A stretch of 64,000 nt of DNA from Yuukianura sp. NJ FZ-2021 (lineage: Eukaryota). How positions within the stretch are numbered: position 1 is the stretch's first letter; every line of letters begins with the position of its first letter. The stretch covers positions 14,384,001 through 14,448,000 of the forward strand of contig CM102285.1 in the NCBI GenBank assembly GCA_046563655.1, written 5' to 3'. Of the stretch, positions 11,177 through 55,720 are shown piece by piece. Under the pieces are notes generated by a model. That model saw only the letters and a list, made by a program, of their open reading frames with translations. It did not search any database and had not been told where the DNA came from. Both the position numbers and the translations under genes were made by a program.

Positions 11177-11379
11177 AAAAAATGAGTTCCATAGTCATCA
11201 AAACATGTTGGGTAATTCCCTCCGTTTTAAAAGTAGGTACACCAATCATTAAGCGTTGTGTGTATGTTAAAAGTCTGTCGTACTTTAAGCGGGTTAAAAG
11301 TAACGTCGTACTTTAAAAGCATGTTAAAAGCACGCCGTACGTTAAGCGTGTAAAATGTACTGAGTAAAAAAGCGTGTTA

Positions 11380-17994: not shown

Positions 17995-19849
17995 ATGCCT
18001 ATCTTGAACGGTAAGTTTAGATGTTGATTGCTAGTGAAAAGTGAAAAAGACCGCTAAGGTTAAAACATTTTTGACAGTTGCCATCAAATGGTTGCGGGAG
18101 ACTTACAAGGATATAGAATGTAACACGGACGAGGATCCGGCTTTGTTCAAAGCCCAACTGTTTGCTCTAACTGGAGTCAGTCCAAGCCGGCAGAAGGTAT
18201 GAACGTTGTTGAAGTTTTGTATAAACGATGAATGATAAGTTGACTTTTTATGATTTCAGGTGATGGTGAAGGGGAAGACGTTGGGTGATGACTCTTGGGC
18301 GACATTCCCGGTGACTAATGGATCAACACTCCTTCTAATGGGAACGAGGGACGAAGATTTCCAGGCCGCTCCTGTCGAGAAAGTCAAGTTTCTTGAAGAT
18401 ATGAACGAAACTGAGCTGGCTTCTGCTGTAAACTTCATTTTTAAGTTCAATCAAATTCGTTTTTCTAACGATTTTTCTAAATTACAGCTGGAGCTGCCTG
18501 TGGGCTTGGCCAATCTAGGGAATACTTGCTACTTGAATGCGACTGTTCAATGTCTCAAGACTGTTCCACCGTTGTCTGAATCTTTGAAGAAGTTTTCTGG
18601 TGCTAGTAGTCTGAGTGCTACGGATACTTCACAGTCTATTACTGCCGCTCTCCGTGACTTATACAATACAATGGACAAGAAAATCTCTTTTCCGCCAGTC
18701 GTGTTGCTCCAGGCAGTTCATACTGCCTTTCCACGGTTTGCTGAGCGGGGAGAAAATGATGTCTGGATGCAGCAGGATGCCAATGAATGTTGGACCGAAA
18801 TTGTCCGAATGCTGCAGCAAAAACTACCACCACATGTTCCAGGAAAGTATAGTTCAGTGGTGGACCAGTTTTTTGGCGGGAAACTGGCAGTGGAATGGAA
18901 AAATAACGAATCTGCTGAAGAGCCTTCCACTTCTTCATCCGAGGGATTTCTCCAGCTGAGTTGTTTCATTGCACCCGAGACGCGCTATCTCCAATCGGGG
19001 CTTCTCCATGTTCGAAATTTAAAACTTTAAACTTTTTTTTGTTCAAAATTCTAAACAATTTTTTGTTTTCAGAAATTGGACGAAGTTGTGACCAAGAATT
19101 CGCCGACTTTGGGACGAGATGCAGAGTACCACAAGAAAGCAAGAATTGATAGACTTCCGGCTTATCTTACTATTCAAATGGTCCGCTTTTACTACAAGCA
19201 ACGAGGTGGCAACAATGCCAAGATTCTCAAGGACGTCAAGTTTCCACTTATGTTTGATGCCTTTGACCTCTGCACGCCACGACTTCAACAAAAACTGCTC
19301 CCAATGAGACAAAAGTTCAAGGAATTGGATGACGCCGTGGCAGAAGGGAAAGGAAAACTTCCAAAGTCGGGTGATCAGAAGAAGGGGAATGAAAATACCT
19401 ATGACGTTCCATTTTCGTTTCAAGATGGTAAGTAAATTGATTAATTGTTAACTTAATTAATCAAAGTAAAGTTAATTGTGTGATTGTGATTATTTTCAGA
19501 TGTTGGATCTAACAATTCCGGATTCTATGAGCTCCAAGCTGTGTTGACTCACAAGGGCCGTTCGTCTTCTTCTGGACACTATGTGGCTTGGATCAAGCAC
19601 TCAGAAGGACTCTGGTTGAAATGTGATGATGACAATGTCACTGGAGTTACGGACGAAGATGTTCTCAAGTTGTCCGGTGGTGGAGACTGGCACATTGCCT
19701 ATGTTCTTCTCTATGGTCCCAAAATCCTAAAACTTCCAGAAGGAGAGCAAATGGCGCCTGTTTTCTGTGAGGAGTGTGAAACGAGCAGCACAACGGCGGA
19801 AACTGAAGCTGAAACGGAAATGGAAGGTGTCACTTCTCAAGACGAGTGA
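17995..19849 (+). CDS. USP14: Ubiquitin carboxyl-terminal hydrolase 14
   Basis: N-terminal UBL (FKAQLFALTGVSPSRQKVMVKG...LLLMGT), Cys box GLANLGNTCYLNATVQCL, QQDANECW, RLPAYLTIQMVRF, His box THKGRSSSSGHYVAW, LSGGGDWHIAYVLLY. Confidence 0.97.
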
Positions 19850-20922: not shown

Positions 20923-22300
20923 TCACTTGTCGTGAAGTATAGAATTTATTCTTTCTTGTCGGTCGTAATCGCTTAGATTTTTTAGAAGACTGGCTAAAGC
21001 CGCTTCTCCGCTGAGGACACCCAGAAGGTTGTGCACAGTGACACCAATACGGTGGTCAGTGATTCTGTCCTGTGAAAAATTGTACGTTCTAATTTTTTCG
21101 TTTCGATTACTACTCCCAACTTGAAGTTTCCGTGTGGATCGGATGAGATTTTGTTGGTCTTCGACTAGTCGTTCGTATAGCCTTGCCCGGAGCAGTGTCA
21201 TTGCAGAAGCTTTGTTCTGGATTTGTGATCTTTGAGTTTGGGAGTCAATTGAAATTCCACTTGGGATATGGGTAACACGAACAGCACTTTCCGTTTTGTT
21301 GACATGCTGACCTCCGGCTCCTGTGGCTCGTTTGGTTTCTATTCGAAGGTCAGCTGGATTTATGACGACTTGGATTTCAGAAGGCATTGGAAGGATTGCT
21401 ACTGATGCGGTACTGGTGTGTACTCTTCCAGCTCGCTCGGTCTTGGGAACCCTCTGGACACGGTGGACACCGGCTTCATATTTTAGCAATTTGTATGCGT
21501 CTGGACCAGTTATGGATCCACTTGCAAGTCGAACGCCGCCTGTAGCACATAATTCAGGTTGAAGAATTGTGAATTCATGAAAAAATTCTGATTTTTTTTT
21601 GAATTACCGATATCCGTTTCAGCGTATGAGAGTTCTTCGAATTCCCATCCGCTGTAAGCAGCAAAGGATTTGTACATTTGAAATAATTCTTCTGCAAAGA
21701 GCATCGCTTCTTGACCTCCGACTCCAGCAGACACTTCTATGACCAATCCATCGCTGTTGTCCATTGGATCTCCTTCGCTGTTTACCAGTACTTCCAAGAG
21801 CTGTTACAAATTTTCGAAAAATGCTTAGCAATTTTATAAAAACTGAAAGATTAACATTGGAAATCGTTTCTATTTGACCTCTTCACCCAAATGAGTCAAA
21901 GACGTTTTCAATTTTTCAGAATCCGCCACTGCCATGTCTTTCAGCTCCTTGTTCTCTGGAAAAAACAATGTTAAGTTGTTAGCTACCGTCAGAACTAAAA
22001 GTAATTACAGAAATTGTCACCTTTTGCTAAAATTTCCAGTTCCTGGAGCTCCAGTTGCTCATTTTCGATAGATTGTAAAATGTGGGCCAATTTAGTATTG
22101 TTTGAGTTCTTTGGATTGTCCATTTTCTGATTAACCTTTTTAACAAGTGTTTGAAGTGTCCTGTCATCCAGTAATTGCTGATGTAGAAATCTACTGCCTT
22201 GTGATTGTTTTGCAAATAAATTCCAACTCCATGCATTGGATTTTAAAATATGAACGGGTATACTTTTGTAACAAAAATTGCTAAACTTGGTACACAGCAT
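20923..22300 (-). CDS. MTRF1L: Mitochondrial peptide chain release factor 1-like
   Basis: Presequence-like N-terminus, IEVSAGVGGQEAMLFA, LKYEAGVHRVQRVPKTE (PxT motif), ATGAGGQHVNKTESAVR (GGQ), KIRTYNFSQDRITDHR. Confidence 0.95.
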
Positions 22301-22731: not shown

Positions 22732-25700
22732 ATGAGTGTTCTAACTTCGGTGAAGATCAAAAAGCCGGAGACTGGACCGGCAGAAGAAAGTGACCAGATG
22801 ATTATCAGACCACTGTAATGTTAACCTTCATGTCCATTTTCTATTAATTGATAATTTCTAACTGTAAAGTTAAATAGCTAAAGTTGTAGTCAATCGAATA
22901 TTCTACAGGGGAGCGGGTCAAGAGGTGGGACGATCCTGCATCATGCTCGAATTCAAGGGAAAGAAAATTATGGTAATGGAGGAACAATCGTTAGTGACTG
23001 GAAATGTATCTAGGTATTATTATTGTTACTAAACATTCCTCATGTTTTCATTTTGTGTCGTTTAGCTGGACATTGGCATTCATCCGGGACATGTTGGGCT
23101 GGAGTCCTTGCCATACGTGGATTTCATAGATGCTGATCAAGTCGATATTCTGCTCGTCTCACAGTAATATTCTTTTTAGCCTATTTTTTAACCTTCGATA
23201 AAACGAATCAAAAACATTCTATATTTTGTAGTTTTCACTTGGATCATTCCGGAGCCCTGCCTTGGTTTCTACTCAAAACGGCATTCAAAGGACGCTGCTT
23301 CATGACACATGCCACGAAGGCCATTTACCGCTGGCTAGTGTCCGATTACATCAAAGTGTCGTAAGTTAAACTTAAACTTACTTAGCTGAAACGTTATTTT
23401 GCTTTGTATTTCACCATTTTGTGCCTGAACAGGAACATCTCAGCGGATCATATGCTTTACACTGAAGCAGATCTTGAAGCGTCCATGGACAAGATCGAAG
23501 TACTGAATTTCCATGAAGAGAAGGAAGTCAAAGGAATCCGATTCTGGGCGTATCATGCTGGCCATGTCCTTGGTGCTGCGATGTTTATGATTGAAATTGC
23601 CGGAGTCAAAGTTCTGTACACCGGAGATTTTTCACGCCAAGAAGATCGCCATTTGATGGCCGCAGAAATTCCGAGTGTTTCCCCACATGTCATGATTGTC
23701 GTAAGTAAAAATAAACTTGTATGCAATCGGCATTTGAAATCTGACTTGTACAATTTTTGTTTGTTTAGGAATCCACTTATGGGACTCACATTCACGAAAA
23801 ACGGGAAGAACGAGAAGCTCGATTCACCGGAATCATTCATGAGACGGTTGGACGCGGTGGTCGCTGCCTCATTCCTGTATTTGCTCTCGGGAGAGCTCAA
23901 GAACTGCTACTGATTTTAGGTAACAAACAAACAAAAAAAAAGTGCAGTTTTCGAAAAAATTTCAACTTCAAATTGATTTTTTGATAGATGAATACTGGAG
24001 TCAGCATCCAGAACTTCACGACGTTCCGATTTACTACGCTTCGTCACTCGCCAAAAAGTGCATGGCAGTTTTTCAAACTTATGTCAATGCAATGAACGAA
24101 AGAATTCGAAGACAAATTGCCATCAGCAATCCCTTTGTCTTCAAACATATTTCCAATTTGAAGGTTTTTCAAAAATAACTCAACATAAAATGAAAAGTGC
24201 AAGTTTTCAAAGTTTTGATTTTTTTTTCTGGTCCAGAGTATTGAACATTTTGATGACGTTGGTCCCTGTGTCGTGCTGGCTTCTCCTGGAATGATGCAGA
24301 GTGGTTTGTCTCGTGAACTGTTTGAAATGTGGTGTACAGATCCCAAGAATGGAGTGATCATTGCTGGATACTGCGTAGAAGGAACACTGGCGAAACAAAT
24401 TCTGTCTGAACCCGAAGAAGTTACGCTCATGAGTGGAATCAAAGTGCCTCTGAAGATGTCTGTCGATTATATTTCGTTTTCAGCTCATACTGACTATGAA
24501 CAAACTTCAGAATTCATTCGGACACTAAAACCACCACATATCGTAAGTTTTCAAAAAAAAAAAGTATTGTGGAATTTGAGAAATAGTTGAAACTTTCTTT
24601 TTCCTGGCAGGTTCTGGTCCATGGTGAGCAGAATGAAATGAGTCGCTTGAAAGCAGCGTTGATTCGAGAATATGAAGGAGACTCACAGCAAATGCAGATT
24701 TACAATCCCAAAAATACTGCTGCTGTTGAGCTTCATTTTCGTGGAGAGAAAATGGCAAAAGTAAAACTCCATTTGAAAATAATGTTAAAATCCTATTTAA
24801 ACCTGTGTTCTTATAAGATATAGTTCTCAATTTTTTTAAGTCCGCTTCGTTTTTAGCATGTTTTGGGTTTTTAACATGGCTTGCTTTGTTGCTTGCTTTT
24901 AACATTTTAGATTTTAATGTTTGGTTTTTCTTTTTAGTTTTAACTTTGATTTCAGGTTAAAATCAAAGAATGTTAAAATCAAGTCATTTTAAAATCAAAG
25001 TTTATGCTAAAACTAAAACTCTTAGCCATAGCAAAATTCGTTGATTTTAACATGGTTTGTTTCTAACATTTAAGGTCATGGGGAGCCTAGCAGCAGCAAA
25101 ACCGGGAAAAAGTGACCACATTTCAGGAATTCTCGTTAAGCGCAACTTTAATTATCACATTGTAGCACCATCAGATCTTGGAAGTAAGAAAATTCTTGAA
25201 GAATTTCTGAAAATCTGTTGAAGAGTTTCTTGTAGAATTTCTGAATGTTACTTTCATAAGTTTCTTGTTGTTTTTTTTTAGAATACACTGATCTCACCAC
25301 CAGCATCGTAACTCAAAGACAAAGTGTTTCCTTTTCGGGAACCTTTGATCTCCTCCAGCACATGTTGGTTCAAATGGCAAAGCAAGTGGAAGTTCTAGAA
25401 GGGAAAACAAAAGAGAAGCGAATTCTGCGTGTTTTCGATGCAGTTGATGTCATTTATGAACCGAAACTGGTGACGATCGAGTGGGTTGCTTCTCCAGTCA
25501 ACGATATGTTCTCAGATGCTTGTCTAACGGCCATTCTGCAAGCAGATTCCATCGAACATCATACAGGAGACTTCCCTCCTCCGCCGGATATTGACGATGA
25601 GCATTTCAAAGTAAAACTTCAAAATTTTGAAACTCACATAATGAAATTTTGAAACTAACTTTGCATTTTTGAATCCAGGAATGTGTAATTGACACTCTCC

Positions 25701-26062: not shown

Positions 26063-27809
<1,747 letters not shown>

Positions 27810-28257: not shown

Positions 28258-29637
<1,380 letters not shown>

Positions 29638-36100: not shown

Positions 36101-36289
36101 TTTTGAAGAGCTTCAAGATCTGAGCCACAAAAAGACATTGGAGCAGAGATGAAGATCGATCAGTCAGTGGACAGGGACACCTCTGCCTAAAACCTTCCAC
36201 GTCTCAAGTACCCTGTCCAAGTACCCTCCCTGTCCAAGGGCCCTGTCCAAGTACTCCTTCGAAGTTTGACCTCTGACCTGGAGTTGACG

Positions 36290-39200
36290 ATGATGATGGA
36301 CGTGCAGGGCGTGGAGCCTTCAGTGCCGGTCAACTGCTCAGGTCCACCGAGTTCCATTTGTTCTGGCTGTGGACTCCGGATTCTGGACAGATTCTACTTG
36401 CAAGCAGTGGAGAAACAGTGGCATGACGACTGTTTGCGATGTCACGTCTGTGGAATCGTCTTGTCCAATGAACTCACTTGTTATGCCCGTGATGGAGTCA
36501 TTCTATGTAAAGAAGACTATGCCAGGTAAGCTATTTAAAAAATTTCTGAAAATTTTCGAAATTTTATGTTATGTTTTTGAAAAAGTCGGATTCAAGTTTA
36601 ATACGCCTATTAAGCCCTTGTAAACTGGAAAAAAGTTCGGTGTGTGTCCATTGTTCGTTGTGGATTTTGACGAGGTCGTGTGTCGTGACCTTAAGGGCTC
36701 CCCGTGTCCCCTTAAGGGCTCCCCCTCATTACAAAAACGTGAAAACCTAAACTATTATTTGCCTCCCAATTTCTATTCATTGACTATCCTTGAGAACATG
36801 GATTTTGGTCCATGTTTTTCTATTGTTTTTTGAAACGTCGTTCGCTGGTCACGTGGCGCTGTCCCTTATATAAACTTGTAAATCAGAGTCGATTGAGCTC
36901 CGGTTTTTGAAAAGAAAACCGAATCCGGGTAGACACGTCGTCATCTTCATCAAGCCGTTTTGATTTTTGGAAATCTAGTGGCTTTGGATTGCAATCGACC
37001 GCCGTTAGCTTAGCACAAGACAGCAGCAGGTCGTGTGATCCCTTGAGAGTCGTTTGTAGACACACAACACAAATGAAGGGCCCTCTGGAATCGGATTATG
37101 CCCGGGAAAATCGGATCATGTTCTTTGTCATTTCAAATAAATTTAGGATCACATTTCAATCTCACGTCTCAAGTGATAAATCTAGATTTTTTGAGATTTT
37201 TTTTTCACAAAAGTTCAACTTTCTCCGCTCATTCTTCACAGCCATTCATATTTTTTGAAAAATTCGGCGAGATAAAAATTTCATTTTTAAAACTTTTTAG
37301 TTTCGACAAACTGGGTTTCCCTGAATGAAATTATTGTAGGTATATGTCAAATTGCATAAACCCATGTTAAGGGTGAATGTTGCCCGGTCGAGGGGCAATA
37401 TTGCCAGGTCAATGACCAATATCACCGGGTGAATGCACAATATTTCCCGGTCAAGAGTCAATATTTCCCGGTAAAGAGTGAATATTTCCCGGTCAAGGGT
37501 CAACAATACCCGGGAAATTCATGTTTTCCACTATTTTTGGATTGATTTGTACTAAAAGTTGGTGAGTTGGCATGAAATTTGTGCATTACACACCTGTGAT
37601 TTTGTGTCATATTCCACCCCTTTGACAGAACAAAGCAACAAAGCGGGTAGAATTGAAGCGTGGCAAAGGGGTATTAAGGGCCCCCTGTTTTTGGGGGTCC
37701 CTTAATACCCCTCTGCCTTGAATACTTAATGTCAAAGGTAGAAAGTAAAAGTATAAAGGTGAATTTTTATGTTTTTGTGAGGATTTGATAAATGAAGCGA
37801 CTAAGCCGTTTGGTTCGAAAAGAAAGCGGCTGAGCCGATAGACAATTCAATTGGGAGGAAAAGTTGGCTGGTGAAAGAAAGTTTTTCTCTGTCCTTGTTA
37901 GCCTCTCCTGCTGATAATTATTAATGAAGTGGAACAGTTTAGTTCAAAAGCACTTTTTCTATAACATAACCTTATGCATATAGTTACTCCCTCCACTTTT
38001 TTTTGTGTAGTTACTCCCTCCACTCAGGTGATTTTCGTGGAAGGGTGAAAGTTGCTAATGATTTTTTGGGGAAAAGTGAACATTTGTGAGGGACGAAAAG
38101 CACCTGTTCCAGCACTTCAAACAATCAATTGACATTTGACATCCAGAAATAGACATGTCAGTGTCAACAATTTTCAAAAACAGAAAAAAATGAAAAAAAT
38201 AAAAATAAAAAAATAAATGAAAAAACGAAAAAAAATCATCCCCGACTTTTTGTTGACATCAAAATCAATTTTCGATTGTTATCAATTTGTTAGTGTGCGG
38301 AGGACACGCTTGTCCAATTTATGCTCGATTTCTTTCTACCGAAAATCGATTTCTTCTACCCAAAAGCATCAGAAAAAAATCGCTTTCTTTTTTATTTTGC
38401 AAAAAAAAAAGTGGAAAACTGGAAAAAATTGCGACTTCGTTGAACATTTTTCATTGAATTTTTTTCGTCTTGGGTGAGATTTTGAGATTTTTTGAAATTT
38501 GGAGGTTAGCTTTGACGTAAGAAGTTAAATTTTTTTGACAGTTCAAGTTGATCTGTACGGAATGCGGTTTACCTTGGGCTTCGGATTAGAGCCATAGATG
38601 ATTGATTAATTTTCTTAATGAATTAATTAACTTTAACTTAAAAATTAATGAGTTAAGGTGTTAATTGATTAATTAACGATTACTTTCTGTTTTCAGACGC
38701 TACAGTTCCGTGGCAAGTCAAGGTCGTTGTGGGCGTTGCAGCGGTGGGATCGGATCTCAGGAGTTGGTGATGCGTGCGAAGGAGCTAGTCTTTCATTTGA
38801 ACTGCTTCGTCTGCGTCATTTGTCTTCGCGTTCTCAATAAGGGTGAGTCTAATCCTCAGATTCAGCAGAAAGTTATGTTTCAGCAGTCATGTGCAACTGA
38901 GAGACAGAGTAACTTCCCAGTGGTTATCTCGGTGGTTACATCTTGATGGTTACAGTGGGAAGGAAGAGGGGATGGAGATTGAGGAGATTAGCAATTCTTT
39001 TAGCACAAGAAACCTCTGTCTGCATTTCAAAAAATGAAACTTTTTTTCTGAAACTGAGCATCATGCGAAACCACCAAAACATTTTTCTAAAAGCGTTTGA
39101 GATTGGGAAGATAGCGGAATGTTCAGAATTAGAGGGCGAGGATGAGCTGGGGGCGGGGCTTTGTGTCGCTTTTAACTAAACATTTTAGAAAATACAAGCC

Positions 39201-42200
39201 GCAAATTTAAGAACGACTCCCCTAACCTATTATTTTCAAAAAAGTTTTTTGAAAGTTAAGTTTTTTCTATAAATTTCTGTGTTTCTGTGTTTTAGGGGAC
39301 CATTTTGGCATGAGGAACTCTGCTCTGTACTGTCAACAACACTACGAACTAGTATTAGATGAACCCTCCTGTGAGCCACCATCGCCCCACCAACTCAACT
39401 TTTTCAATGGGGCTGGAACGGGGCAAAAGGGGCGGCCGAGAAAGAGAAACAAAGACACCACGCTCATTCCTACGCCACCAATCGGTAAGGTCAAAGGTCA
39501 ACGCCATTTACTAAAAATTACACACAATACTTACTCAATTCTCAAAGAAAACTAGGTCCGAGAAATCCATCCGTGGAATTAACAATGTTATGTTATTGAA
39601 AAACCAAAATTAAGCTAGTCTGCGCTTTAAATATTTCTGAAATCAAAATTTTGTAATCGTTTAGTATTGCGCTTAGCAAAAGAAAAGTTGCACTTTGTTG
39701 ATTTCAAGGTCAAAGGTCAACGCCATTTACTAAAAATTATACACAAAATTACTCAATTCTCAGAAAAAAAAAACTAGGTCGGAGACAGGGTTTAAGGTAT
39801 CCATAGATGACATTGGCAATGTTATGTTATGGGTAAACCAAAATTAAGTTTGCGCTTTAAATTCTGAAATCAAAATTTTGAAATTATTGTTTAGTATTCT
39901 ATACCAAAAAAAAAGTTGCGCTTTTTTGATTTCAACGTCAAAGGTCAACGTCATTGAAAATTTTAGCTAAAAGTGCCTCAATTCTAACAAAATTTAAAAA
40001 CTAGATTCTTGAAATCTAGATGCGAGATTATATTGAAATGTTATTTTTTCTTTTATTCTAGACGAGAGTAAGTACTGTTCTGCATAAATTTTTTGGAATC
40101 AAAATTTCGGAACTTTTTTTTTGGTTTTGGAGGAAATCAAAAAATTTAGACAAAAGCTACAACGTATGCAGATAGAATCTACGTTGATTTTTTCTAAAGT
40201 TAACAATGGGAAAGACCTTGTACTTTTTCCCATTTTTGGATTTTTTTTTAATTGTTTTTTTGTAATGCAGTATTTTTAGCAGTGTCCTCTGTTTTCCCCT
40301 TAAAGTAAAATCCCAGTACCGTAAATTTTCGAATAATCGGTGTTACTGGAAAGAAGCGCCAGGCATAAACGCCGCTCTAATAACTTTCCGCTGTCAGCGT
40401 TCGTTCAAGCTGAAATTTGATTTGCAGTTGAAGAATTTTTTGGTTTGCACCGTAAAACTTCGCAGATACTTGGGCGCTTAAATCTGCTACAAGCACAATA
40501 TGAGTAGTTTTACGGTACTTTTGGAGTTTGTTTGTGGGAATGGAGTATTATGTTAATATTTTGCGTTGGTAATTGTGACAATGTCAATTGCGGGAAGCGT
40601 CTGATTGTTGGAAGAGGCTAACAGGACAAGTATGGAGAGAGTACTGGTGAATGCTGAATGATTTGCGTGTCTCCTTCCCATCACCGGAAACAGTTAACAG
40701 AAGTGGAGTGGAAAACATGTGCGTGTCACTTATAAGGTTGACTACCGTGAGGACGCCACTTCCACCGAACTCCTCATTACGAACACTGTTCCCTCCAACC
40801 ACTTATTCTAAACCACTAAAATTATAAATCAACATCCACTTTTTAAGAAAAATACACCAAAAGTTACAAAAAGTTGGAAAAGTCTTTGTTTTTTGGATTA
40901 AAAAGTGTCACTTTCTAAGAAAAACAAAAGTCGCTTTTCCTTTTTCCGTTCTTCGAAAAGTTCCAACTTCCAAATCATGATGAATTTGGTTGAACATTTT
41001 CTAAACATGTTTGAACTTTTGAACAATTTTTTAAAACATGAGCGTTTGAACAGCAGGGAGTTTTTAGTACCAAGTTAAAGAAAAGCGAATTCAATTCAAA
41101 ACAGCGTTTTTTTGCCGCTGAGCTTGCAGCGGGAGGTGATCGCTGCGATGTTTGTTGGTTTTCTTTTTCTTTCGGCTTGTTTAAGGAACCGCGCCCTCCC
41201 TTAAGTTTTGTTAAGCTTTTGATTCATGATCTCAAATAAATTACATCTGTGGAACAAGCAAGAGGAGAATAAGGGCCTTTCTGGGCAAGAGGGGGCCCTT
41301 AGATGGAACTTCCAAGGCTCCCTTAAGGACTCCCTGAAGTGGAAACAAGAAAAAACTGTTTGAATTTTGCAAACTTTACTAAAAATTCAATGAGAAGGTT
41401 TTAATCCCGGAATGATCTGAATTTTTACTTATGTCAACAAGTGCGACGGAGAGAAGTTATTGACTGGCGTCAAAGTTAACCTGCTGACTGAAGTGACCTT
41501 TGACCTTTGCGTGATGCAAAGCATTTAGGTACTGCGACTGCGCAGTATCAAATAAAAAAAAACTGATTATAGTGGTTGGTGAAGAGAATTTTACCCCTTA
41601 GAGCTTGATTGAAACGTTTTCATTAATCAAGTTGAAATTTTGAAGTTTTGAGAAAGTTCAAGTTTACTTGATGATCATTTTTACAAAAATCTTGTTTGTT
41701 TTTTTCAGATTTACTAACAAATCCGGATAGTCTGCGGATGGAAGGCTACGAGTCAAGTTCGAGTTCCTGTCCAGGAAATAATCAGCAGCGGACGAAGCGC
41801 ATGCGCACCTCCTTCAAGCACAATCAACTCAGGACGATGAAGACGTACTTCGGAATGAATCAGAATCCGGATGCCAAAGATCTCAAAAACCTCGCACAAA
41901 AAACCGGACTCAGCAAACGCGTTCTCCAGGTGAGTTCTTTAAAAAAAAGTTGAAAAGATTCAATTATCAATGCAAGTTGTTCAATCATCTTCAAAGATCT
42001 TGAAAGATCAGAGGAGGGAGTAACTTATTAAATACACTGGCGGCAGTATTTGAAAAGATGATGAAAGGATTTGACCTAATCTTTGACTTTTACCATTTCT
42101 CTTTACATGTTTCCACTTGTCAAGAACATTTCAATTCAACTTTTTACTTAAAAATAAAACGATTTTTCATTTCAATTTCGTGCTTTTTTAATGAAAATGA

Positions 42201-46897: not shown

Positions 46898-49800
46898 ATG
46901 AGTGACGACTCTGAAATGGAATACGACGATGACGAGGACAGTGATGACGATTACGAAGATGCAGAAGAAGAGCCAAACATTTTGGAAATACTTGAAGCGC
47001 GTGCTCAAGCGGAAAAGTTCGAACCGGAAGAGCCAGAACAAGAAGAACCAGTACCGAAAAAAGTTCGACGCAAAACTCCCGAATACGATCCGATCCGCAA
47101 GGAACAAGATCTGGAACTGTTGGTACTACGGAAGCCGACTAAAAACGACCGAATCGCTGACGGTGTGCCGAAACCGGTCAAACCGGCTTTACCGACCAAT
47201 CCGCTTCCTAGATGGCGCCTTCTCAACTTGGATGAAAAAGTTCCGCTCGTTCCAGCTCCGAATGGAACTTTTGTCAACTTTAGAGCCGAAGTTTCTAAAC
47301 CTGTAAATTTTAAAATTGACTTTCCTGAAATTTTTGCAAGGTCAAGGTCACCTCGATTTAAATGTTATTTAGCTCTACGTCCAGAACAACTATGGTTTTG
47401 ACACCTCAGATCCATTCATGCATGAAACAACCACTGGCTACACGGCTCTGCACGATCCACACCTCAAGTACTTTTTTCAAACACAGCCGAATTTGTTCAA
47501 ACGGCTAATTGGCATGGGGCTGTTGACCCCCAAGGGGGAGGTCATCTGCACTTTAGCTGAATTGAACAAGTACAGACTCTACATGAGTCGAATTCACAAG
47601 CTTCAGTTGTCAGCCGAGAGGCAGAAACAGGTTTGTTGACCTTTGACCATTTTGATTTTTGACCATTTTAACTTTTGACCACTTTGACCTTTCAGACTTT
47701 GGTAACTTTAACCTTTGACCAACAGTTTGCCCCTCATCCTGGAAATTTCTATGATTATTTTGAACCCTTGGTATTGACAATTTTGGTTTTTGCCTATTTT
47801 GACCTTTTTGAATTAGGTCATTTTGACCATCTTGCCTTTGGCACAAACAGAGCACAAAACTCTGATCCTTGAAATTTCTAAGGATAATTTGACTCTGGGT
47901 TTTGACAATTCTAGTTTTTGACTTTTTTTTTTACCTTGGACAGCGCGACCATTTTGACTTTTGACCATTTTGACCATGGCTTTGACAAATTATGGCTTTC
48001 ATCTTAACTTAACTTGACTTTTGATTTATTTTGACTTTTGACATATTTTTTATTTGACTTTTGACAATTTTGACTTTTTGTCTTTGACCTTCTCTAACTT
48101 AATTTCAGGAAGAATGGGACAATTGCCAGAAAAAACACATCAAGAGCGTTGAAGATGCGATTCGAAGAGACATTCGGCTCAAGCGTAACGAATTGCGGCT
48201 TCTACGCAGACTCCAAATATTGCAAGACAATGAACGAAGGTAATCCTGATGACCTTGACCTTTGACCTTTCTTAAAATCACAGTAATTTTTGTAGAATAC
48301 AAGCACTAAGGGCCAAATGGAGAGAGCACCCAAGCAACAATTACGCTGAGACAAGAGCACATGAACAAAGCATGGCAAAGAGAATTCGCGAATTGAAACG
48401 AGCACATGTCGCCCGTCGCATCGCAGCTCTTCGCGAATCGCAACAAAAGAGAATCAAGCGTATCATTTTACACATTTTATGCGAAGAAGAATTTTCTGAA
48501 CAACTCCGAGCGTTCCTCTGCACTCAAAAATTTGTTAACCACCAAGCAGATGTAATTCAAATCACTAACTTTTACAAAAACCAAAATCAATTTTTTGAAA
48601 AACCGTTTTTTGAAATTTCAGCTCAAAAGTTTTTCAGAGAATAAGAGACGCTACCAAGAAGACAAGATACGCTACCACACTGCTCTTCTGCGTCGAAATG
48701 TCATCGAACGGAAATGTCGCATCAGAAATCGCGAATTGGGCTACACGTTAATTGCACAAAGAGAAAAAGAACTTGCGACAAGAAAAAAAGTTCAAAAAAA
48801 GTTGAAAGCTGAAAGGGAAATGTACTTGATGGAAAAATATGGACGTCATTGGCTCCGATTAGTAAGTTTTCAAAATCCAAAATTTCGAAAATCAAAATTT
48901 TCAAAATTTTGAACTTTTCTTTTTTAGACAAGACGATACCACCAAAACGAAGCTCACCAAAGTCTGTGGAAAGCTCGCAATGTACTGGTGGAAGGAAACA
49001 AAACGTTGAAGGAATTTGCACAATGTGAAGGCATTGGACTCGGAAATCTGATGCAGACTTTACTCGGGAAAAAACTTGGAACAACGACCAATATTCGAAA
49101 AAATTTGGTAAATTTCAAAATTTTTTCAAAAATTTTGAAAAGGAAATCCTGATAATTTTTTGTATTTTTGCAGGATGAAGCAGCAGACGACACTTACGCA
49201 GAGATGCTTGAAAAATTGTCGCAGTGCGTCATAAATTATGTCGTAGAGGAGGCGGGAAAGAAAATTTTAGATTACGTTTGTCGTGAGGGCATTGACCCCA
49301 AAGACTTGGTCAAACCGGTAATTCCGAACCGAAAACGAAACCAAATTCAACTCGAACCGCCGCACCGACCTTGTTCCGGTCCGTGTGCACAATTCGGTCG
49401 TGGAGAGGAATGGGCACGTCGATGCGGGAAAATGACGCAGGAACTGACGAGTTTGAAAACTGAACTGAAAAAGAATCTGAACAAAAAGTTATCAGGACTT
49501 TTACGACGCGGACTGAAATCGGATGATGACTGGAGTAAAACTTCAACAAAAATTCCAAAATTTTGAACTTTTTTTTAATTTTTTTTTTTTTTTGAAACAG
49601 AGAAATTTCGAGACAATGTGTCCCGGGTTGAGAGTAACGCTGACATTGTCACAGCAATTGACACTGTCGCTGGAATTACGATGGACCGAGCAAGTCCGAA
49701 TCCAGCCAATCCAAAAATGCAAAAAGATTTCCAAGATTACGCTACAACGAAAATCGCCAAATCTTTAACGGTACAATTTTTGAAAAAAGTTTGAAAAAAT

Positions 49801-52800
49801 TTTGATTCAAAAGACTTTTTTGAATTTTTTTTTTTTTGAAACTTGCTTTGCAGGATGGACTGGACACAGATGATATCACGAAGGTCAGAAAACCGAGTCG
49901 TGAAATTCCGAAAAAATCTTCAGTATCGAAAGGATCCGAACAACTGAACGAAATTGAAACGGTCAGAAAAAAATCAACTCCTTCTGGAATTCCCAAAGAC
50001 GCAACAAGCAAACCATCTCCAGGTTTTTTCAAAATCCAAAGTTTAAATTCTGACACTTTTTGAAATTTCGTTTTTTTTTAAAGATGATTCTAAACCGGGG
50101 AAGAGCACTGAGAAATCTGATAAGGATTCCAACTTAACTGTTTTGAATGAGCCAATCGCCGATGAGGAAGGCCAACCGCTTCAAGATTCTGGGCAAGTTC
50201 CAGCACCATCTTCTGAAATTCCAATCACTGCAAAAACCAGCGAAGTACCAATCGCAGAGCAACCAAAAGATGCAAGTCTCATGCCTGAAAAATCCAAAGA
50301 AGCAGGGCCACTCGCTGAAAAGACAAATGAGGCAGCCCAAATTTCTGAAAAACCGAAAGAAGCAGTGCCAATTTCTGAAAAACAGAAAGAAGCAGTGCCA
50401 ATTTCTGAAAAACAGAAAGAAGCCGTGCCAATTTCTGAAAAAGCGGGAGAAGCAACGTCAACTACTGAAAAACCAGGAGAAGCGCCAATCACAGAACAGC
50501 AAGGAGAAGGCGGGCCAATCACTGAAGAAGAAACAGATCAAACTTCTTCCCAAGTTCTAGCCCCGGCAACCGAAATTCCTGTCGCTGAAAAACCAAAAGA
50601 AGCTCCAGTTACAGAAAAGCCAAAAGACGAAGCTCCAGCTACTGAAAAGTCAAAAGACGAAGCTCCAATCGCTGACAAGTCAAAAGGAGTTCCAGCTACT
50701 GACAAATCAAAAGAAGCTCCGATCGCTGAAAAATCTAAGGAGCCCGTCAGTGCTGAGTCTGCCCAAGTGCCAGCACCATCTTCCGACATTCCAATTGCCG
50801 AAAAGCCTACTGAGGCACCAGTTTCCGAAAAACCAGCAGAAGCAGTTCCAATCGCTGAAAAACCAGCAGAACCAATCAGCGTTGCAGGAGAACAGCCAGT
50901 TCAAGGACTTGTGGACGTCCCACGGCCATCTTCCGAACTTCCAGTAACTGAAAAAGAAAAAGAGGCTCCAATCTCTGAAAAACCAACAGAAGCAACATCA
51001 ATCCCCGAGACAGCAGAAGAGCCAATCAGCGTTGGAGAAGATCAACCGCCTCAAACTTCTGGACAAGTTCCAGCACCGACGTCTGAAACTCCTGTAACTG
51101 AAAAGTCAACAGAAGAAGCACCAATTACTGGAAAAGAAGAAGAAGGAGCACCAATTACTGAAAAACCAAGAGATTCAATCACTGAGAAGGAAAAACAAGG
51201 AGAGCCAATCAATGAAAAGGAAAAAGAGCCAATCAGCGGCGAGGAAGAAAAACCACCTCGAGGTTCTAAAGAAGTTCCAGCGCCATCTTCAGAAATTCCA
51301 GCTACTGAAAAACCAACTGAAGGAGCACCAATTTCTGAAAAACCGCTTGGAGGTACTGAGGAAGAACAATCCGCCGAAGGTCCAGTGCCACCTTCCGAAA
51401 CTCCAGCTACTGAAAAAACAAAAGAAGGTGAGCCAATCGCTGAAACTCCAACAGAAACAGCTCCAGAAACTGACAAACCAACAGAACAACCAGGAGAGCC
51501 AACCGCTAAGAAGTCAACAGGAGAGGAGCCAAGTACTGAAAAACGAACATCAGAGGAACCAATCAAAGAAAAAACAGAAGAACAGCCAATCGCTGAAGGA
51601 TTTACAGAAGAACAGCCAATCACTGAAGGAACCCCAGAACAACAGCCAATCACTGAAGGATCTCCAGAACAACAGCCAATCACTGAAGCATCTACAGAGG
51701 AACAGTCAATCGCTGATTCAGCAGCGGAGGGAGCCCCGATCGCTGAAAAATCGGGAGAACCAATCGCTGAAAAGCCGATTACTGAAACTTCAAAAGAAGA
51801 AGAATCGATTACTGAAACTTCAAAGGAAGAAGAATCGATTACTGAAACTTCGGCACAAGAAGAGCCGATCACTGAAACTTCAAAATCAGAAGAACCAATC
51901 ACTGAACAGCAAACAGCAGGAGAGCCAATCACAGAAAAACAAGGACAAGAGCCAATCACTGAACCACAAACAGAAGAAGCCGCAATCGCTGAAAATGAAG
52001 AACAAGAACAAAGAATCGCTGAAAACGAAGAAGATGAACAGCGAATCGCTGAAAACGAGCAAGAGGCAGAGGGAATGGGTGAAAAACCACCAAAATCAGC
52101 GTTTTCAGGCGACTTATCAGAATGTGTCACCGGAAAAATCAGCGAAATTGTTCAAAGAGCAATTCGTGCCGCTTGTGGTCAGGTTTGTCCTGCACCAAAA
52201 TCAGCCCAACCGTGTAACGACCAGGCAATTCTGGACAACTACGCAGCAAAACTGACTGCCCAAGCTCTCCAACAAGCATGCGCAACTCGCGATACCGGAT
52301 CAGGTCCAGATCAGCCCAGAGTGTCGTCAGGTGACTGGACACAATGCTTGGCCAACAAGGCAGGCGACATTGTCCGGAAAGCTATTCTGGAAGGAAGGGC
52401 AGATCAACTGGCTTCTGCAGCGCTGCAACACGCCTGTGCAACTCGAGATGCCGCCCAAAATCCGGAAGTATCTTCCGGGTACATATCGGAGTGTTTGAGT
52501 GCAAATGCCAGCGATTTGGTTCACAAAGCGATTTGTGCTGCTTGTGGTGAAATTCACACAGCGTCACAACCTTGCGACGAATCAAAAGTTCTGGAAGGCT
52601 ATGCAGAACAAATCGCTGCTGGAGCGCTGAAGCAAGCCCAACAAACAAAGGTGCTGGAGAACTATGCTGACAAAATCGCTGCTGGAGCTTTGCAGCGCGC
52701 TTGTGCAGATCGACCAGCAACTTTAGAGACATATGCAGACAAAATCGCTGCTGGAGCTTTGCAGCGTGCAAACGCAGATCGACCAGCGATTCTGGAGAAC

Positions 52801-54140
52801 TATGCAGACAAAATCGCTGCTGGAGCTTTGCAGCGCGCATGTGCAGATCGGGCAACGGGAGGTGACGTGTCAGAATGTGTCAGCGGTACGGCTAGTGAAA
52901 TTGTTCAGAAAGCGATTTGTGCTGCCTGTGGTCACATATCATCCCATCCTGATGATGAAACTGCAATGCTGGAAGGTTACGCTGATCAAATCGCTGCTAG
53001 AGCTTTGCAGCGCGCTCGTACAAGTACGGACCCCCAAGTTTCGTCAGGCGACTGGACAGAATCCGTCAGTGGCAAAGCAAGTGACATTGTCCAGAAAGCG
53101 ATTTGTGCCGCTTGTGGTCGCTTGCGAGACGCTTCAAAAGCGCCACAACTTAAAAACGAAGCGGAACGTCTGGAAGGCTATGCAGATCAAGTAGCAACTG
53201 GAGCTTTGCGTCAAGCGCAAGCGGTGAACGCTGCACAGCAGAAATCTGCCAAACCACATGTCCGCATTGCATCTCAAGATTTGGTACAGAGTAGAAGAGA
53301 TTTGGAATTAAGCAGAGCAGGTCAATCAGGTAAAATTCGAAATTCAAAACTCGCGATTTTTTATAACAAGATTTTCTATTTCAAAAATCGCTGATTTTTG
53401 TAGTGAACATTCGAATTCCAAGCAGCGATTCCTTGGGTCCTTCTACTGCTCAAATCCTCGTAGCTCCACGATTGTTGCCGACACAAAGTGACATGAGACG
53501 TGACATCACTCCATCCCAATTTCAAAATATGACCTACAATGTATAAAAAAAACGAAACTTTTTTTTTAAACTCCAATTTTTAAGTCAAATTTTGATTTTT
53601 TTTTGAAAATTCAACAGTTTGATCCCTCGGCCAGCATGGTAGGGATGGTTCGTGCCGAGGGAAAATTGGATGTTCATGAAGGTCAAGCTCCCATTCGTCC
53701 TTCCCTGGCCGCGTCTCAATTCTTTCCTCAAGTTCAAGGTCAAGGTCAAAGTCAAGGTCAAGGTCAACGACCTTTTGAAGGTCAAGGGCCCAGCGGTGGC
53801 TACCATGAACATTTTCTAACTCGTACGGGCCCTGGATCTGCTCCGACAGACGCCCCAGCAGCACGTGATCCAGGCCAGCAAGACTTTGCAAACCGGGGAA
53901 ACGTTTATCCAGCAGAAGTAAGTTCAAAATTTCAAAAAATCCTAAAAATATGTTCAAAATTTTGAAAAATGTTTTTTTATTTAAAATCAAAACTTTCTCC
54001 AGGTTCACACTGAAGTTCAAGGTCATCTGCGTCGTCTTCGGAGAGAACTGGACCAGTTGTCGGAAATGCTGCGTGATGCTGGAATTCCTGTCGACAATTC
54101 ACAAGCTCCGCCTCCCCCTCCACCACAACCAAAACCTTAA
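46898..54140 (+). CDS. Fibrous sheath-interacting protein 2 (FSIP2)-like large multi-exon protein with acidic repeats and AKAP-like helical repeats
   Basis: Exons 46898-47302 and 47373-47630 give LNLDEKVPLVPAPNG...YGFDTSDP...YTALHDPHLKYFF...KRLIGMGLLTPKGEVICTLAELNKYRLYM. This matches the FSIP2 N-terminal motif as recalled (LPLGVKLPVIPG...YGFNLTDP...YKSLHDPHLK...VVCTLRELNKYRQY). Coiled-coil exons follow, then a 3.2-kb exon (~50084-53329) and three short exons to TAA 54138-54140. Confidence 0.8.
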
Positions 54141-54438
54141 CAATTTAACAAAGTGACACTAACATTTTTAAAAAAGATAATTTTTATTTTTTAACAAAAA
54201 AATATTGTTCTCGTAAAACGATGAAATAAAAATTTCTGAAACTGAATCCCGTCAACTGTACAAGTGTGTAACCACGGACCTTGAGCTTTATTACCGCATT
54301 AACTTAACAAATCCATGGCAACGCAACTGGCGTTGAACCAAAATTCGTCAAACAACCGAATTTTTTTGTTTTTGGATTTCTGAAATTTTGGTTCCTCATA
54401 TGTAGTTTGTTTTTACGTTTTTGAATTCCGTCGTCAAA

Positions 54439-55720
54439 ATGTTTGGAGTAACGTCAAGTCCACACATTTCACGGCGCGAACAAGATTCGTCGTTGAATTC
54501 TGGAAATGACGGCGAACGGTATTCAGCGTCTACTTCTAACCTGCAGTCAAACGAGGCTCGGTAAGCTCTTCTAAACTTTCAAAAATTTGAAATCTTTTGC
54601 TTTTTTCTTCAACTTTTTGAAATTTTGAAGTTCCCGAAACCATCCAGTTCTGTTTGGTCTAAATGTGTACTATGAAGAGCCAATCGGAGTTGATCCCTGG
54701 GGCGTTCGGAACTCCACTGCTGCTGCTCTGGGTATCGGCGGAATGCTGCGAACATATGCTTCTGTGTATCACTCTTTTGATGCTCGACGGTACTTCGGAG
54801 ATAAGAACTACGATCACGAGTTGGATATAAACGGAAATGGACCAATCACAAGTAAGCACTTCAAAATTTCAAAAAAAAATGTTTAAAGAATTTAAAATTT
54901 CAAAATTTTAGATTGCTTTTCGGAAACGGGAGAGACGTCGTTTGACGTGAAATTTACGGAGGACAGAATTCACGTCCCGCGTTTTATAGAGCTCAAGACT
55001 CTACGTTTAGGCGCGAAAGCCGGATTCCGCGGATTTGCGTTTCTCCAGAACCGAACTGGACTCAACATGACGTTTTTCGTAATCTAACATGAAAAATTTC
55101 AAAAAATTGTTGTTGTTTTTTTTTTTTCAAAATTTCCTAAAAATTTTAGATCAAACCGTCTTCTCCGCTGATCCATGTAAAGGAGAGCGTTGATTGGTTG
55201 CTGCCAAACGAATCTTTCAAAGTCCACTTCAAGAGCTACACTTACTGGAAAGAGATTCGGAACGAATTTATTTTGGTCTATGCCGCTCCGATCTTCTTTC
55301 CGGAACAACTCGATCTTCTGAAACTCCGACAATACTGGAAAGTATGTTCTGAAAACACAAAATTTTCAAAAAATTTCTTGTTTTTGAAAATTTTGAACAA
55401 GTTTATATTGCCAGGGACTCGGAAGTGATCTTCTTCCGCTGGAACACGTCGAGTGTCACCGAATTCATAAACTCCGCCTCTCTCCAGAACTGGAAGGCAC
55501 TTACTCCATGATGGACCACGTGACTTTTGACAGAACTTTTTCAGCATCATCGCTGGTTCAATGTCACCCTTGTTCAGTGATAGCACAGCATCCAAGTTAC
55601 AGCGATTTCTGGAACTTCAAGGACGAAGACATGGAGGTCGCTCTGGTAGGTTCGCTCGATTCCATGCCATTGCTTCGGATAGAAATGTTTCGAATTGAAT
55701 TCTTGCGAAAAGCTCATTAA
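54439..55720 (+). CDS. Uncharacterised protein with probable divergent MSP (motile sperm/PapD-like) domain
   Basis: Five exons splice in frame (GT-AG). Central FAFLQNRTGLNMTFFIKPSSPLIHVKESVDWLLPNESFKVHF...NEFILVYAAP...LRQYWK follows the MSP pattern (L-x-N-x-T..FK.K...P....V......L.P.ES..V...F.V...AP...W). Confidence 0.65.

Follow-up and report, generated by a model that had tools for sequence, protein, structure and literature searches.

Helices that anchor protein kinase A (PKA) or one of its non-kinase D/D relatives mostly occur singly, as short motifs, so a large flagellar assembly made from them is hard to picture. The locus described here raises the question of whether one polypeptide could carry many such helices in a row, or whether a row of this kind has some other use. 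It lies in a 64,000-nucleotide stretch from Yuukianura sp. NJ FZ-2021 (contig CM102285.1, positions 14,384,001 to 14,448,000 of the forward strand), hereafter the window, which is animal DNA by its Pfam content and to which all unlabelled coordinates refer. In the distal part of one large exon on the + strand (the big exon) of a predicted gene, 13 short helix-compatible units follow one another, and these possibly form a docking scaffold for D/D dimers.

An earlier note on this DNA, made from the sequence alone, had counted five copies of a class A motif and eight of a class B motif at this place, with one class B string occurring twice. A script search of the translation recovered all 13 strings in frame within 50047-53394 (+), a frame of 1115 codons without a stop, and the class B string LENYADKIAAGALQRA is indeed present twice. 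The strings span 52132 to 53217 and are arranged as A B A B A B B B B A B A B. The limits of the whole array were drawn from motif location, shuffles, a relaxed regular expression and unit stacking, and the units were placed by locating their strings in the translation, B4 to B6 also by TRF:

52093..53238, + strand: helix array, 13 units
52132..52173, + strand: unit A1
52231..52278, + strand: unit B1
52354..52395, + strand: unit A2, joined directly to B2, with neither the CxxCG tail nor a linker
52387..52434, + strand: unit B2
52501..52542, + strand: unit A3
52591..52638, + strand: unit B3
52654..52701, + strand: unit B4, first of three 23-residue tandem copies
52723..52770, + strand: unit B5
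52792..52839, + strand: unit B6
52885..52926, + strand: unit A4
52969..53016, + strand: unit B7
53071..53112, + strand: unit A5
53170..53217, + strand: unit B8

The overlap of A2 and B2 amounts to three residues. Over the + strand frames of 46898-54200 the relaxed regular expression matches exactly 13 units, all of them in the big exon. TRF reports a repeat of period 69 nt (2.8 copies, 85% matches, 52657-52850), and only the three youngest copies within the array are detected in this way.

The helix array exceeds chance expectation by far. The skeleton A..[ILV][VAT]..A[IL]..[AG], which was drawn up after the copies had been inspected and is therefore post hoc, occurs 12 times in the 407-residue tail of the big exon; in 2000 composition-preserving shuffles it averages 0.02 occurrences and never exceeds 1, with 0/2000 attaining 12. 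It has no occurrence in the 666 upstream residues of the big exon, nor in 100 further open frames of the window, which total 13,816 residues. A pattern fixed a priori, three PhiPhiXX repeats followed by Phi, is found 10 times in the tail versus a shuffle mean of 0.52, and 0/2000 shuffles reach 10.

A relative of the array was found in a second species. When the 410-residue tail was compared by HMMER with 1.84 billion protein representatives, three rows reached E<=0.001, and only one of them, P0002, is a genuine relative (phmmer E 1.4e-10; BLASTP E 2e-16, 26% identity over 372 columns). The other two, P0003 (E 1.1e-6) and P0004 (E 7.1e-5), were rejected, since their matches sit in the unrelated 'LTPALIEKYEDKL' repeat. 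P0002 is encoded on a 3,695-nt metagenome contig, L001, with its N-terminal part falling outside the contig. A related-locus search from P0002 returned only its own contig, and a homologue search with the tail region within the 1115-residue frame gave none among proteins of 613-1952 residues.

The order of parts in L001 is that of the window. Short tandem repeats come first and are followed by a class A unit; class-B-like units with the pattern ICDESxNVExxAxEIAxKAL then stand in a row, and after them come another class A unit, one class B unit and a tail exon. The relaxed regular expression counts 2 class A and 10 class B units in L001, besides one degenerate unit that does not match it, versus 5 and 8 in the window. 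The BLASTP alignment is otherwise largely colinear, but three class A units of the window align with B-like units of L001, and the L001 array is split by at least one intron. The terminal exon (53406-53543 in the window, 2113-2262 in L001, where it ends ...FQNMTYNV-stop) has 28/44 residues identical at E 9e-18, the stop ending both proteins; it is thus 64% identical between the species versus 26% for the array. The conserved C-terminal tail reads ...ILVAPR..PT.SD..R..TPSQFQNMTYNV-stop, and its conservation stands well above that of the array. Two further exons 3′ of the tail exon are conserved in the same order (E 4e-7 and 6e-13). By these comparisons L001 is assigned as the orthologous locus, and the significant similarity together with three flanking exons in shared order places the window protein and P0002 in one family.

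The 25 units, 13 from the window and 12 from L001, were stacked on an anchor alanine as position 0. The stripe that runs through the stack consists of L or V at −4 (hydrophobic in 25/25), A at 0 (22/25), I/L/V/M at +3 (25/25), A/V/T at +4 (24/25), A at +7 (25/25), L/I at +8 (25/25) and A at +11 (17/25). Other conserved columns are −9 (D in 16/25), −3 (E in 13/25), +12 (C in 13 units, R in 7) and +13 (A/G in 20/25), while the columns between the stripe positions, including the polar ones, are variable across the units. Conserved cysteines beside the helices had been noted earlier; this is true in part, with C at +12 in 13/25, at −5 in 7/25 and at −10 in 8/25 units, but none is invariant. Proline is absent from the 221 core residues (−4 to +12), compared to 12 prolines in 126 linker residues; the cores are helix-compatible and separated by Pro-rich linkers.

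Class A units carry the cap SGDxSEC before the helix and AIC-x-x-CG after it, and class B units carry (C)DES-x-x-[VL]E before the helix. The distinction between the classes is genuine and holds in L001 too, but the two are sub-types of a single repeat: a profile built from the 7 class A units and one built from the 18 class B units align in the same register (hhalign E 9.9e-5, probability 58%). The spacing from anchor to anchor in the window is 35, 39, 13, 36, 32, 21, 23, 23, 29, 30, 32 and 35 residues, a range of 13-39 as compared with 32-62 in L001, and a fixed 23-residue period is confined to B4-B6. Neither the fixed repeat length nor the unbroken heptad of a regular alpha-solenoid or canonical coiled coil was found, and the helices are interrupted by the Pro-rich linkers. 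Considering the irregular anchor spacing and the class order that differs between species, independent modules fit better than one fixed fold.

Among the paralogous cores, the proportion of synonymous differences (pS) is 0.53-0.59 and that of non-synonymous differences (pN) is 0.24-0.27, with pN/pS ~0.45. In B4-B6 there are 3.5-8.3 synonymous changes over ~17 sites versus 4.5-7.7 non-synonymous changes over ~52 sites, and the core peptide is unchanged despite several synonymous changes. This ratio, with the core peptide kept in B4-B6, indicates that single units are under purifying selection.

An anchoring helix has been described as an amphipathic stretch of 14-18 residues, often with 3-4 PhiPhiXX repeats, alike for binders of RIIa and Dpy-30 domains (PMC3494852, excerpt), and the number of helical turns needed is about five for PKA-R and about four for DPY-30 (PMC12203939, excerpt). 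The stripe of the array covers ~17 residues, or some five turns, and agrees at the sequence level with this definition in 25/25 units. The peptides AKAP-IS, RIAD and Ht31 are printed in Table 1 of PMC4526808 (excerpt). When they were aligned by eye and without gaps to the column table of the 25 units, the peptide residue was seen in the corresponding column at 12/17 positions for AKAP-IS, 12/18 for RIAD and 12/18 for Ht31; among the matches are E at −3, A at 0, I/L at +3, V/A at +4, I at +8 and A at +11. The earlier note had compared class A with the AKAP helix pattern and class B with RIAD, and as sequence likeness both comparisons are borne out, again by eye. Class A has the residues of AKAP-IS at 6/6 core positions (A, I, V, A, I and A at 0, +3, +4, +7, +8 and +11), and class B has L-E-x-Y-A-x-x-[IL]-A...A in common with RIAD in a gapless alignment. 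The AKAP79 peptide that the note also quoted found no match in a literature text search.

There are also differences. Position +7 is invariably Ala in the array, in contrast to Ile in RIAD and Val in Ht31. Known AKAPs have one to a few anchoring helices, whereas the array has 13 in a row, with conserved N-caps (SGDxSEC, CDES) and flanking cysteines. The term AKAP-like is fair as a description of sequence resemblance. A multi-helix arrangement is known from RSP3, a structural scaffold in which two helices of the PhiPhiXX pattern hold spoke proteins with RIIa and Dpy-30 domains (PMC3494852, excerpt), and DDIPs are mostly ciliary or flagellar and architectural (PMC12203939, excerpt). The array protein would carry this idea further, with 13 helices compared to the two of RSP3, but there is no sequence relationship between them, the array protein having no Pfam match.

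Based on this resemblance, we tentatively propose that the array acts as a multivalent scaffold of the AKAP/DDIP-like kind, on which D/D dimers would dock, a reading that we hold to be possible rather than probable. The region would make up the distal third of a cytoplasmic protein of ~1,800 residues, in which, according to the gene model, an acidic N-terminus, a conserved N-terminal region, an R/K/E-rich probable coiled coil and ~600 residues of P/E/K-rich repeats would precede the array and a short conserved tail would follow it. The 13 units would be separate short helices in vivo, joined by Pro/Ser/Asp-rich linkers of irregular length. Their stripe of small and aliphatic residues would be of the type that fits the groove of the four-helix bundles formed by D/D (RIIa/DPY-30-type) dimers. 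Each helix could thereby dock one D/D dimer, of PKA regulatory subunits or of non-kinase flagellar D/D proteins such as ROPN1L or SPA17, and the two classes may differ in their preference for RI and RII. The disordered spacer would keep the docking array away from the anchoring N-terminal part, and the protein would presumably reside in a flagellum or cilium. The earlier interpretation as an AKAP-like array stands as far as sequence-level periodicity, length and peptide alignment go, but it found no counterpart among the FSIP2 or AKAP families of Pfam. A natural 13-helix protein with two conserved flavours could serve as a test bed for what makes a helix choose among D/D dimers. Invertebrate sperm or cilia have ROPN1/FSIP2-type proteins but lack AKAP3/4 (PMC11276731, excerpt), and such a protein would be a candidate for the anchor that they are missing.

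Several results weigh against this proposal. In the helical-wheel and AKAP-motif scoring that had been suggested as a check, the a-priori pattern is enriched in the tail as given above, but the Eisenberg hydrophobic moment is modest at 0.23-0.56, with only 5/25 units exceeding 95% of their own shuffles. The generic PhiPhiXX pattern is common elsewhere, with 24 matches in the 13,816 background residues of the 100 other open frames. Profile searches of all PDB chains with class A and class B yielded no AKAP peptide. Their best rows are at chance level (E 0.65-7.6) and are packed helices of an archaeal histone, Ypt7, ribosomal protein uS7 and adenylosuccinate lyase; because these are ordinary packed helices, the stripe is not specific to AKAPs. 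The hmmscan of the tail and the big exon against Pfam-A found no family at E<=1, AKAP-type families included, and single units gave no AKAP-type family at E<=10 (0/7 class A, 0/18 class B). We take the AKAP-type families of Pfam to be the RII-binding helix, AKAP110/AKAP4, AKAP28 and radial spoke 3. The conserved caps (SGDxSEC in class A, CDES in class B) and the CxxCG tail of class A hint at another or an additional function, and to our knowledge neither such caps nor this tail are features of AKAPs. Finally, the presence of ~13 largely colinear units in both species could also reflect a fixed architecture. The array protein is not assigned to any named family.

Structure prediction was consulted for helicity and packing. 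From the single-sequence tail (410 residues), AlphaFold2 gave one helix per motif and one terminal helix, at pLDDT 39 and pTM 0.23. One A-B unit with a six-row alignment was modelled as two helices with a low-confidence linker, at pLDDT 63 and pTM 0.32. These models weakly support helicity and give nothing reliable on packing. A complex prediction of a class A versus a class B unit, run without alignments and without controls, scored 0.03 against a mark of 0.34. A PDB sequence search with the tail had 0 matches at E<=10, and an ESM Atlas search with it gave no usable match.

The main rival, somewhat unlikely in our estimate, is a self-packing structural repeat, in which the alanine-rich stripes would pack A on B, within or between chains, into hairpins or bundles cross-linked by the flanking cysteines, to serve for example in a peri-axonemal fibre and not as a docking scaffold. 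Alanine-rich stripes are suited to tight helix-helix packing, and the top PDB profile rows are helices packed within ordinary folds. The helices are flanked by cysteines at the three positions listed above, and mammalian fibrous-sheath proteins are disulfide cross-linked. The alternation of A and B over much of the window array, together with the ~13 largely colinear units in both species, would also suit such packing. The spacing, however, is irregular (13-39 residues), A2 and B2 are fused without a linker, and the succession of A and B changes from one species to the other, with B-like units of L001 aligned to three class A units of the window. The cysteines vary from unit to unit as well. 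The AlphaFold2 models lack confident tertiary packing (the pTM values above), which is a weak argument considering that the alignments were single-sequence or very shallow. Should self-packing prove correct, the array would define a helical repeat family that is new and braced by cysteines, and that has a single detectable relative in the 1.84 billion protein representatives.

In the class A tail AIC-x-x-CG-x-(I/L)-H, Cys at +9, Cys at +12 and His at +16 share one helix face, a possible metal or redox site. The class A alignment shows units with this ending at the following places:

52501-52560, window: class A unit ending AIC-x-x-CG-x-(I/L)-H
52885-52944, window: class A unit with the same ending
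53071-53130, window: class A unit with the same ending
435-536, L001: class A unit with the same ending
1659-1760, L001: class A unit with the same ending

That these tails bind metal or act as a redox switch, the array being a sensor or buffer, appears quite improbable to us. Cysteine is present at both +9 and +12 in 5/7 class A units, from both species, and His follows three residues past the second Cys in 3/7; one class A unit also has a sub-threshold row for a Pfam treble-clef zinc finger (E 0.17), but this is far below the Pfam cut-off and limited to 1/7 units. The CxxC is confined to class A and absent from all 18 class B units; within class A, position +9 of A1 is R, and A2 is without the tail. 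Hardly credible, and already disfavoured, is a fast-evolving low-complexity repeat without specific function or a mis-read frame, as might be suggested by the highly repetitive big exon, the likewise long and open alternative frames and the single relative among the 1.84 billion representatives, but which is at odds with 1115 open codons, the conservation in L001 of array (BLASTP E 2e-16), tail exon (E 9e-18) and flanking exons, fixed stripe columns beside variable ones, and pN/pS ~0.45 among the copies.

The gene around the array is a predicted model. Its exon chain came from a length-maximising splice script and was later checked as an open coding sequence. The chain is unbroken, with 11 exons joined at GT-AG introns, starting with the ATG at 46898 and ending with the TAA at 53544-53546 (+), and has a coding sequence of 5,472 nt for 1,823 residues, of which the array occupies residues ~1,365-1,745. 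Most of the model introns are 61-74 nt. The exons, which would belong to a single transcript, and the repeats before the array are:

46898..47302, + strand: model exon 1, with the ATG, an acidic N-terminus and then the start of the putatively FSIP2-N-terminus-like region (open frame; donor CCT/GTAAAT)
47373..47630, + strand: model exon 2, 86 residues, holding ...LHDPHLK... and ...CTLAELNKYR... (acceptor TTATTTAG, donor CAG/GTTTGT)
48109..50022, + strand: model exons 3-9, R/K/E/L-rich, probably coiled-coil (length-maximising script, as for the two lines below)
48109-48239, 48284-48551, 48622-48861 and 48928-49107, + strand: model exons 3-6
49174-49417, 49601-49788 and 49854-50022, + strand: model exons 7-9
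50084..53329, + strand: the big exon, model exon 10, 3246 nt (1115-codon open frame; acceptor TTTTTTTTAAAG, donor CAG/GTAAAA)
50285..52085, + strand: ~60 tandem 10-residue P/E/K/T-rich repeats of the P-I-x-E-K-x-K-E-A-x type (TRF, period 30 nt)
53404..53546, + strand: model terminal exon ending ...TPSQFQNMTYNV, with the TAA at 53544-53546 (in frame with donor 53329; L001 conservation)

The 10-residue repeats form several sub-arrays over ~600 residues directly before the helix array, and in L001, too, the first class A unit is preceded by short tandem repeats. The composition of the window repeats is 22% E and 13% P, and they probably form a long, acidic and disordered spacer. The donors of model exons 7 and 8 are weak (5/9 consensus positions). 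Two helix-like stretches with hydrophobic i/i+3/i+4 spacing are seen in these exons (49174-49300 and 49640-49700, +); one begins DDTYAEMLEKLSQCVINYVVEE and the other contains SNADIVTAIDTVAGI, and neither fits the array regular expression. A further exon proposed by the script, 47696-47816, translates a TTGACC-type microsatellite and was dropped, because exon 2 joined straight to 48109 is also in frame. Microsatellite-like repeat of this type fills much of the 478-nt intron 2 (47640-47930) and creates misleading open frames on both strands.

By its conservation in L001 the terminal exon is well supported. An in-frame alternative is possible, in which 53618-53917 would continue the big exon via a weak donor at 53283, but it ranks below the conserved terminal exon. 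Downstream exons at 53618-53917, 54003-54137 and 54629-54883 (+) are conserved in order in L001 (2130-2555, 3319-3639) and have no Pfam family; at 53618-53917 an acceptor is present and a conserved start codon is absent. They could belong to this gene as alternative 3′ exons, or else to a gene close by.

The protein had been called FSIP2-like in the earlier note, with a search of its first exons against FSIP2 as the check. The likeness presumably lies between exons 1-2 and the N-terminal ~110 residues of vertebrate FSIP2 (YGF-x-x-TDP, LHDPHLK, CTL-x-ELNKYR), and an R/K/E-rich part of coiled-coil-like character comes next. The Pfam FSIP2 model has no match at E<=1 in any exon or open frame of the gene, and exons 1 and 2 have no Pfam match. 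With exon 2 as query, word-index searches of proteins of 152-2000 residues yielded no homologue, even with the threshold at E<=10. A PDB search with exon 2 gave nothing below E 0.1, the one row at E 0.11, a PUM-HD protein, being due to chance, and the exon 2 motifs had no match in a literature text search. Leads from the ESM Atlas for exon 2 (<=0.90: unnamed clusters, DUF5528, FAM228) were rejected, as none was confirmed by hmmscan. The model protein also differs in size, ~1,823 residues versus 6,907 for human FSIP2 (PMC11276731, excerpt).

According to an OrthoDB-based review, FSIP2 and ROPN1, both counted as fibrous-sheath-associated proteins, are present in most Metazoa, and AKAP3/AKAP4 only where a fibrous sheath exists (PMC11276731, excerpt); this distribution bears on the present case only if the presumed FSIP2 likeness is right. 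In the most far-reaching form of the docking proposal, improbable as we consider it, an FSIP2-lineage protein would itself be the flagellar anchor where AKAP3/AKAP4 are lacking. It would be 13-valent, its two classes would recruit different D/D dimers (RI versus RII, or R2D2 proteins such as ROPN1L/SPA17) in a set order on a disordered tether, and oxidation of the class A CxxC tails and the flanking cysteines would gate or lock the occupancy. If true, this would make it the highest-valency D/D docking scaffold known and would offer a view of how fibrous-sheath AKAP systems began.

Elsewhere in the window, Pfam matches mark a LIM-homeobox gene upstream of the array gene at 36191-41950 (+), with LIM domains at 36191-36526 and 38677-38943 and the homeodomain at 41675-41950, and the following features:

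1465-1773, − strand: cofilin/ADF
5499-6353, + strand: peritrophin-A chitin-binding domain
8327-11194, − strand: MTPAP-like poly(A) polymerase
18254-19846, + strand: ubiquitin hydrolase (USP protease)
20926-21803, − strand: mitochondrial-type release factor
23386-25649, + strand: CPSF73-like
26543-27214, − strand: thiolase
28342-29637, − strand: NOA36

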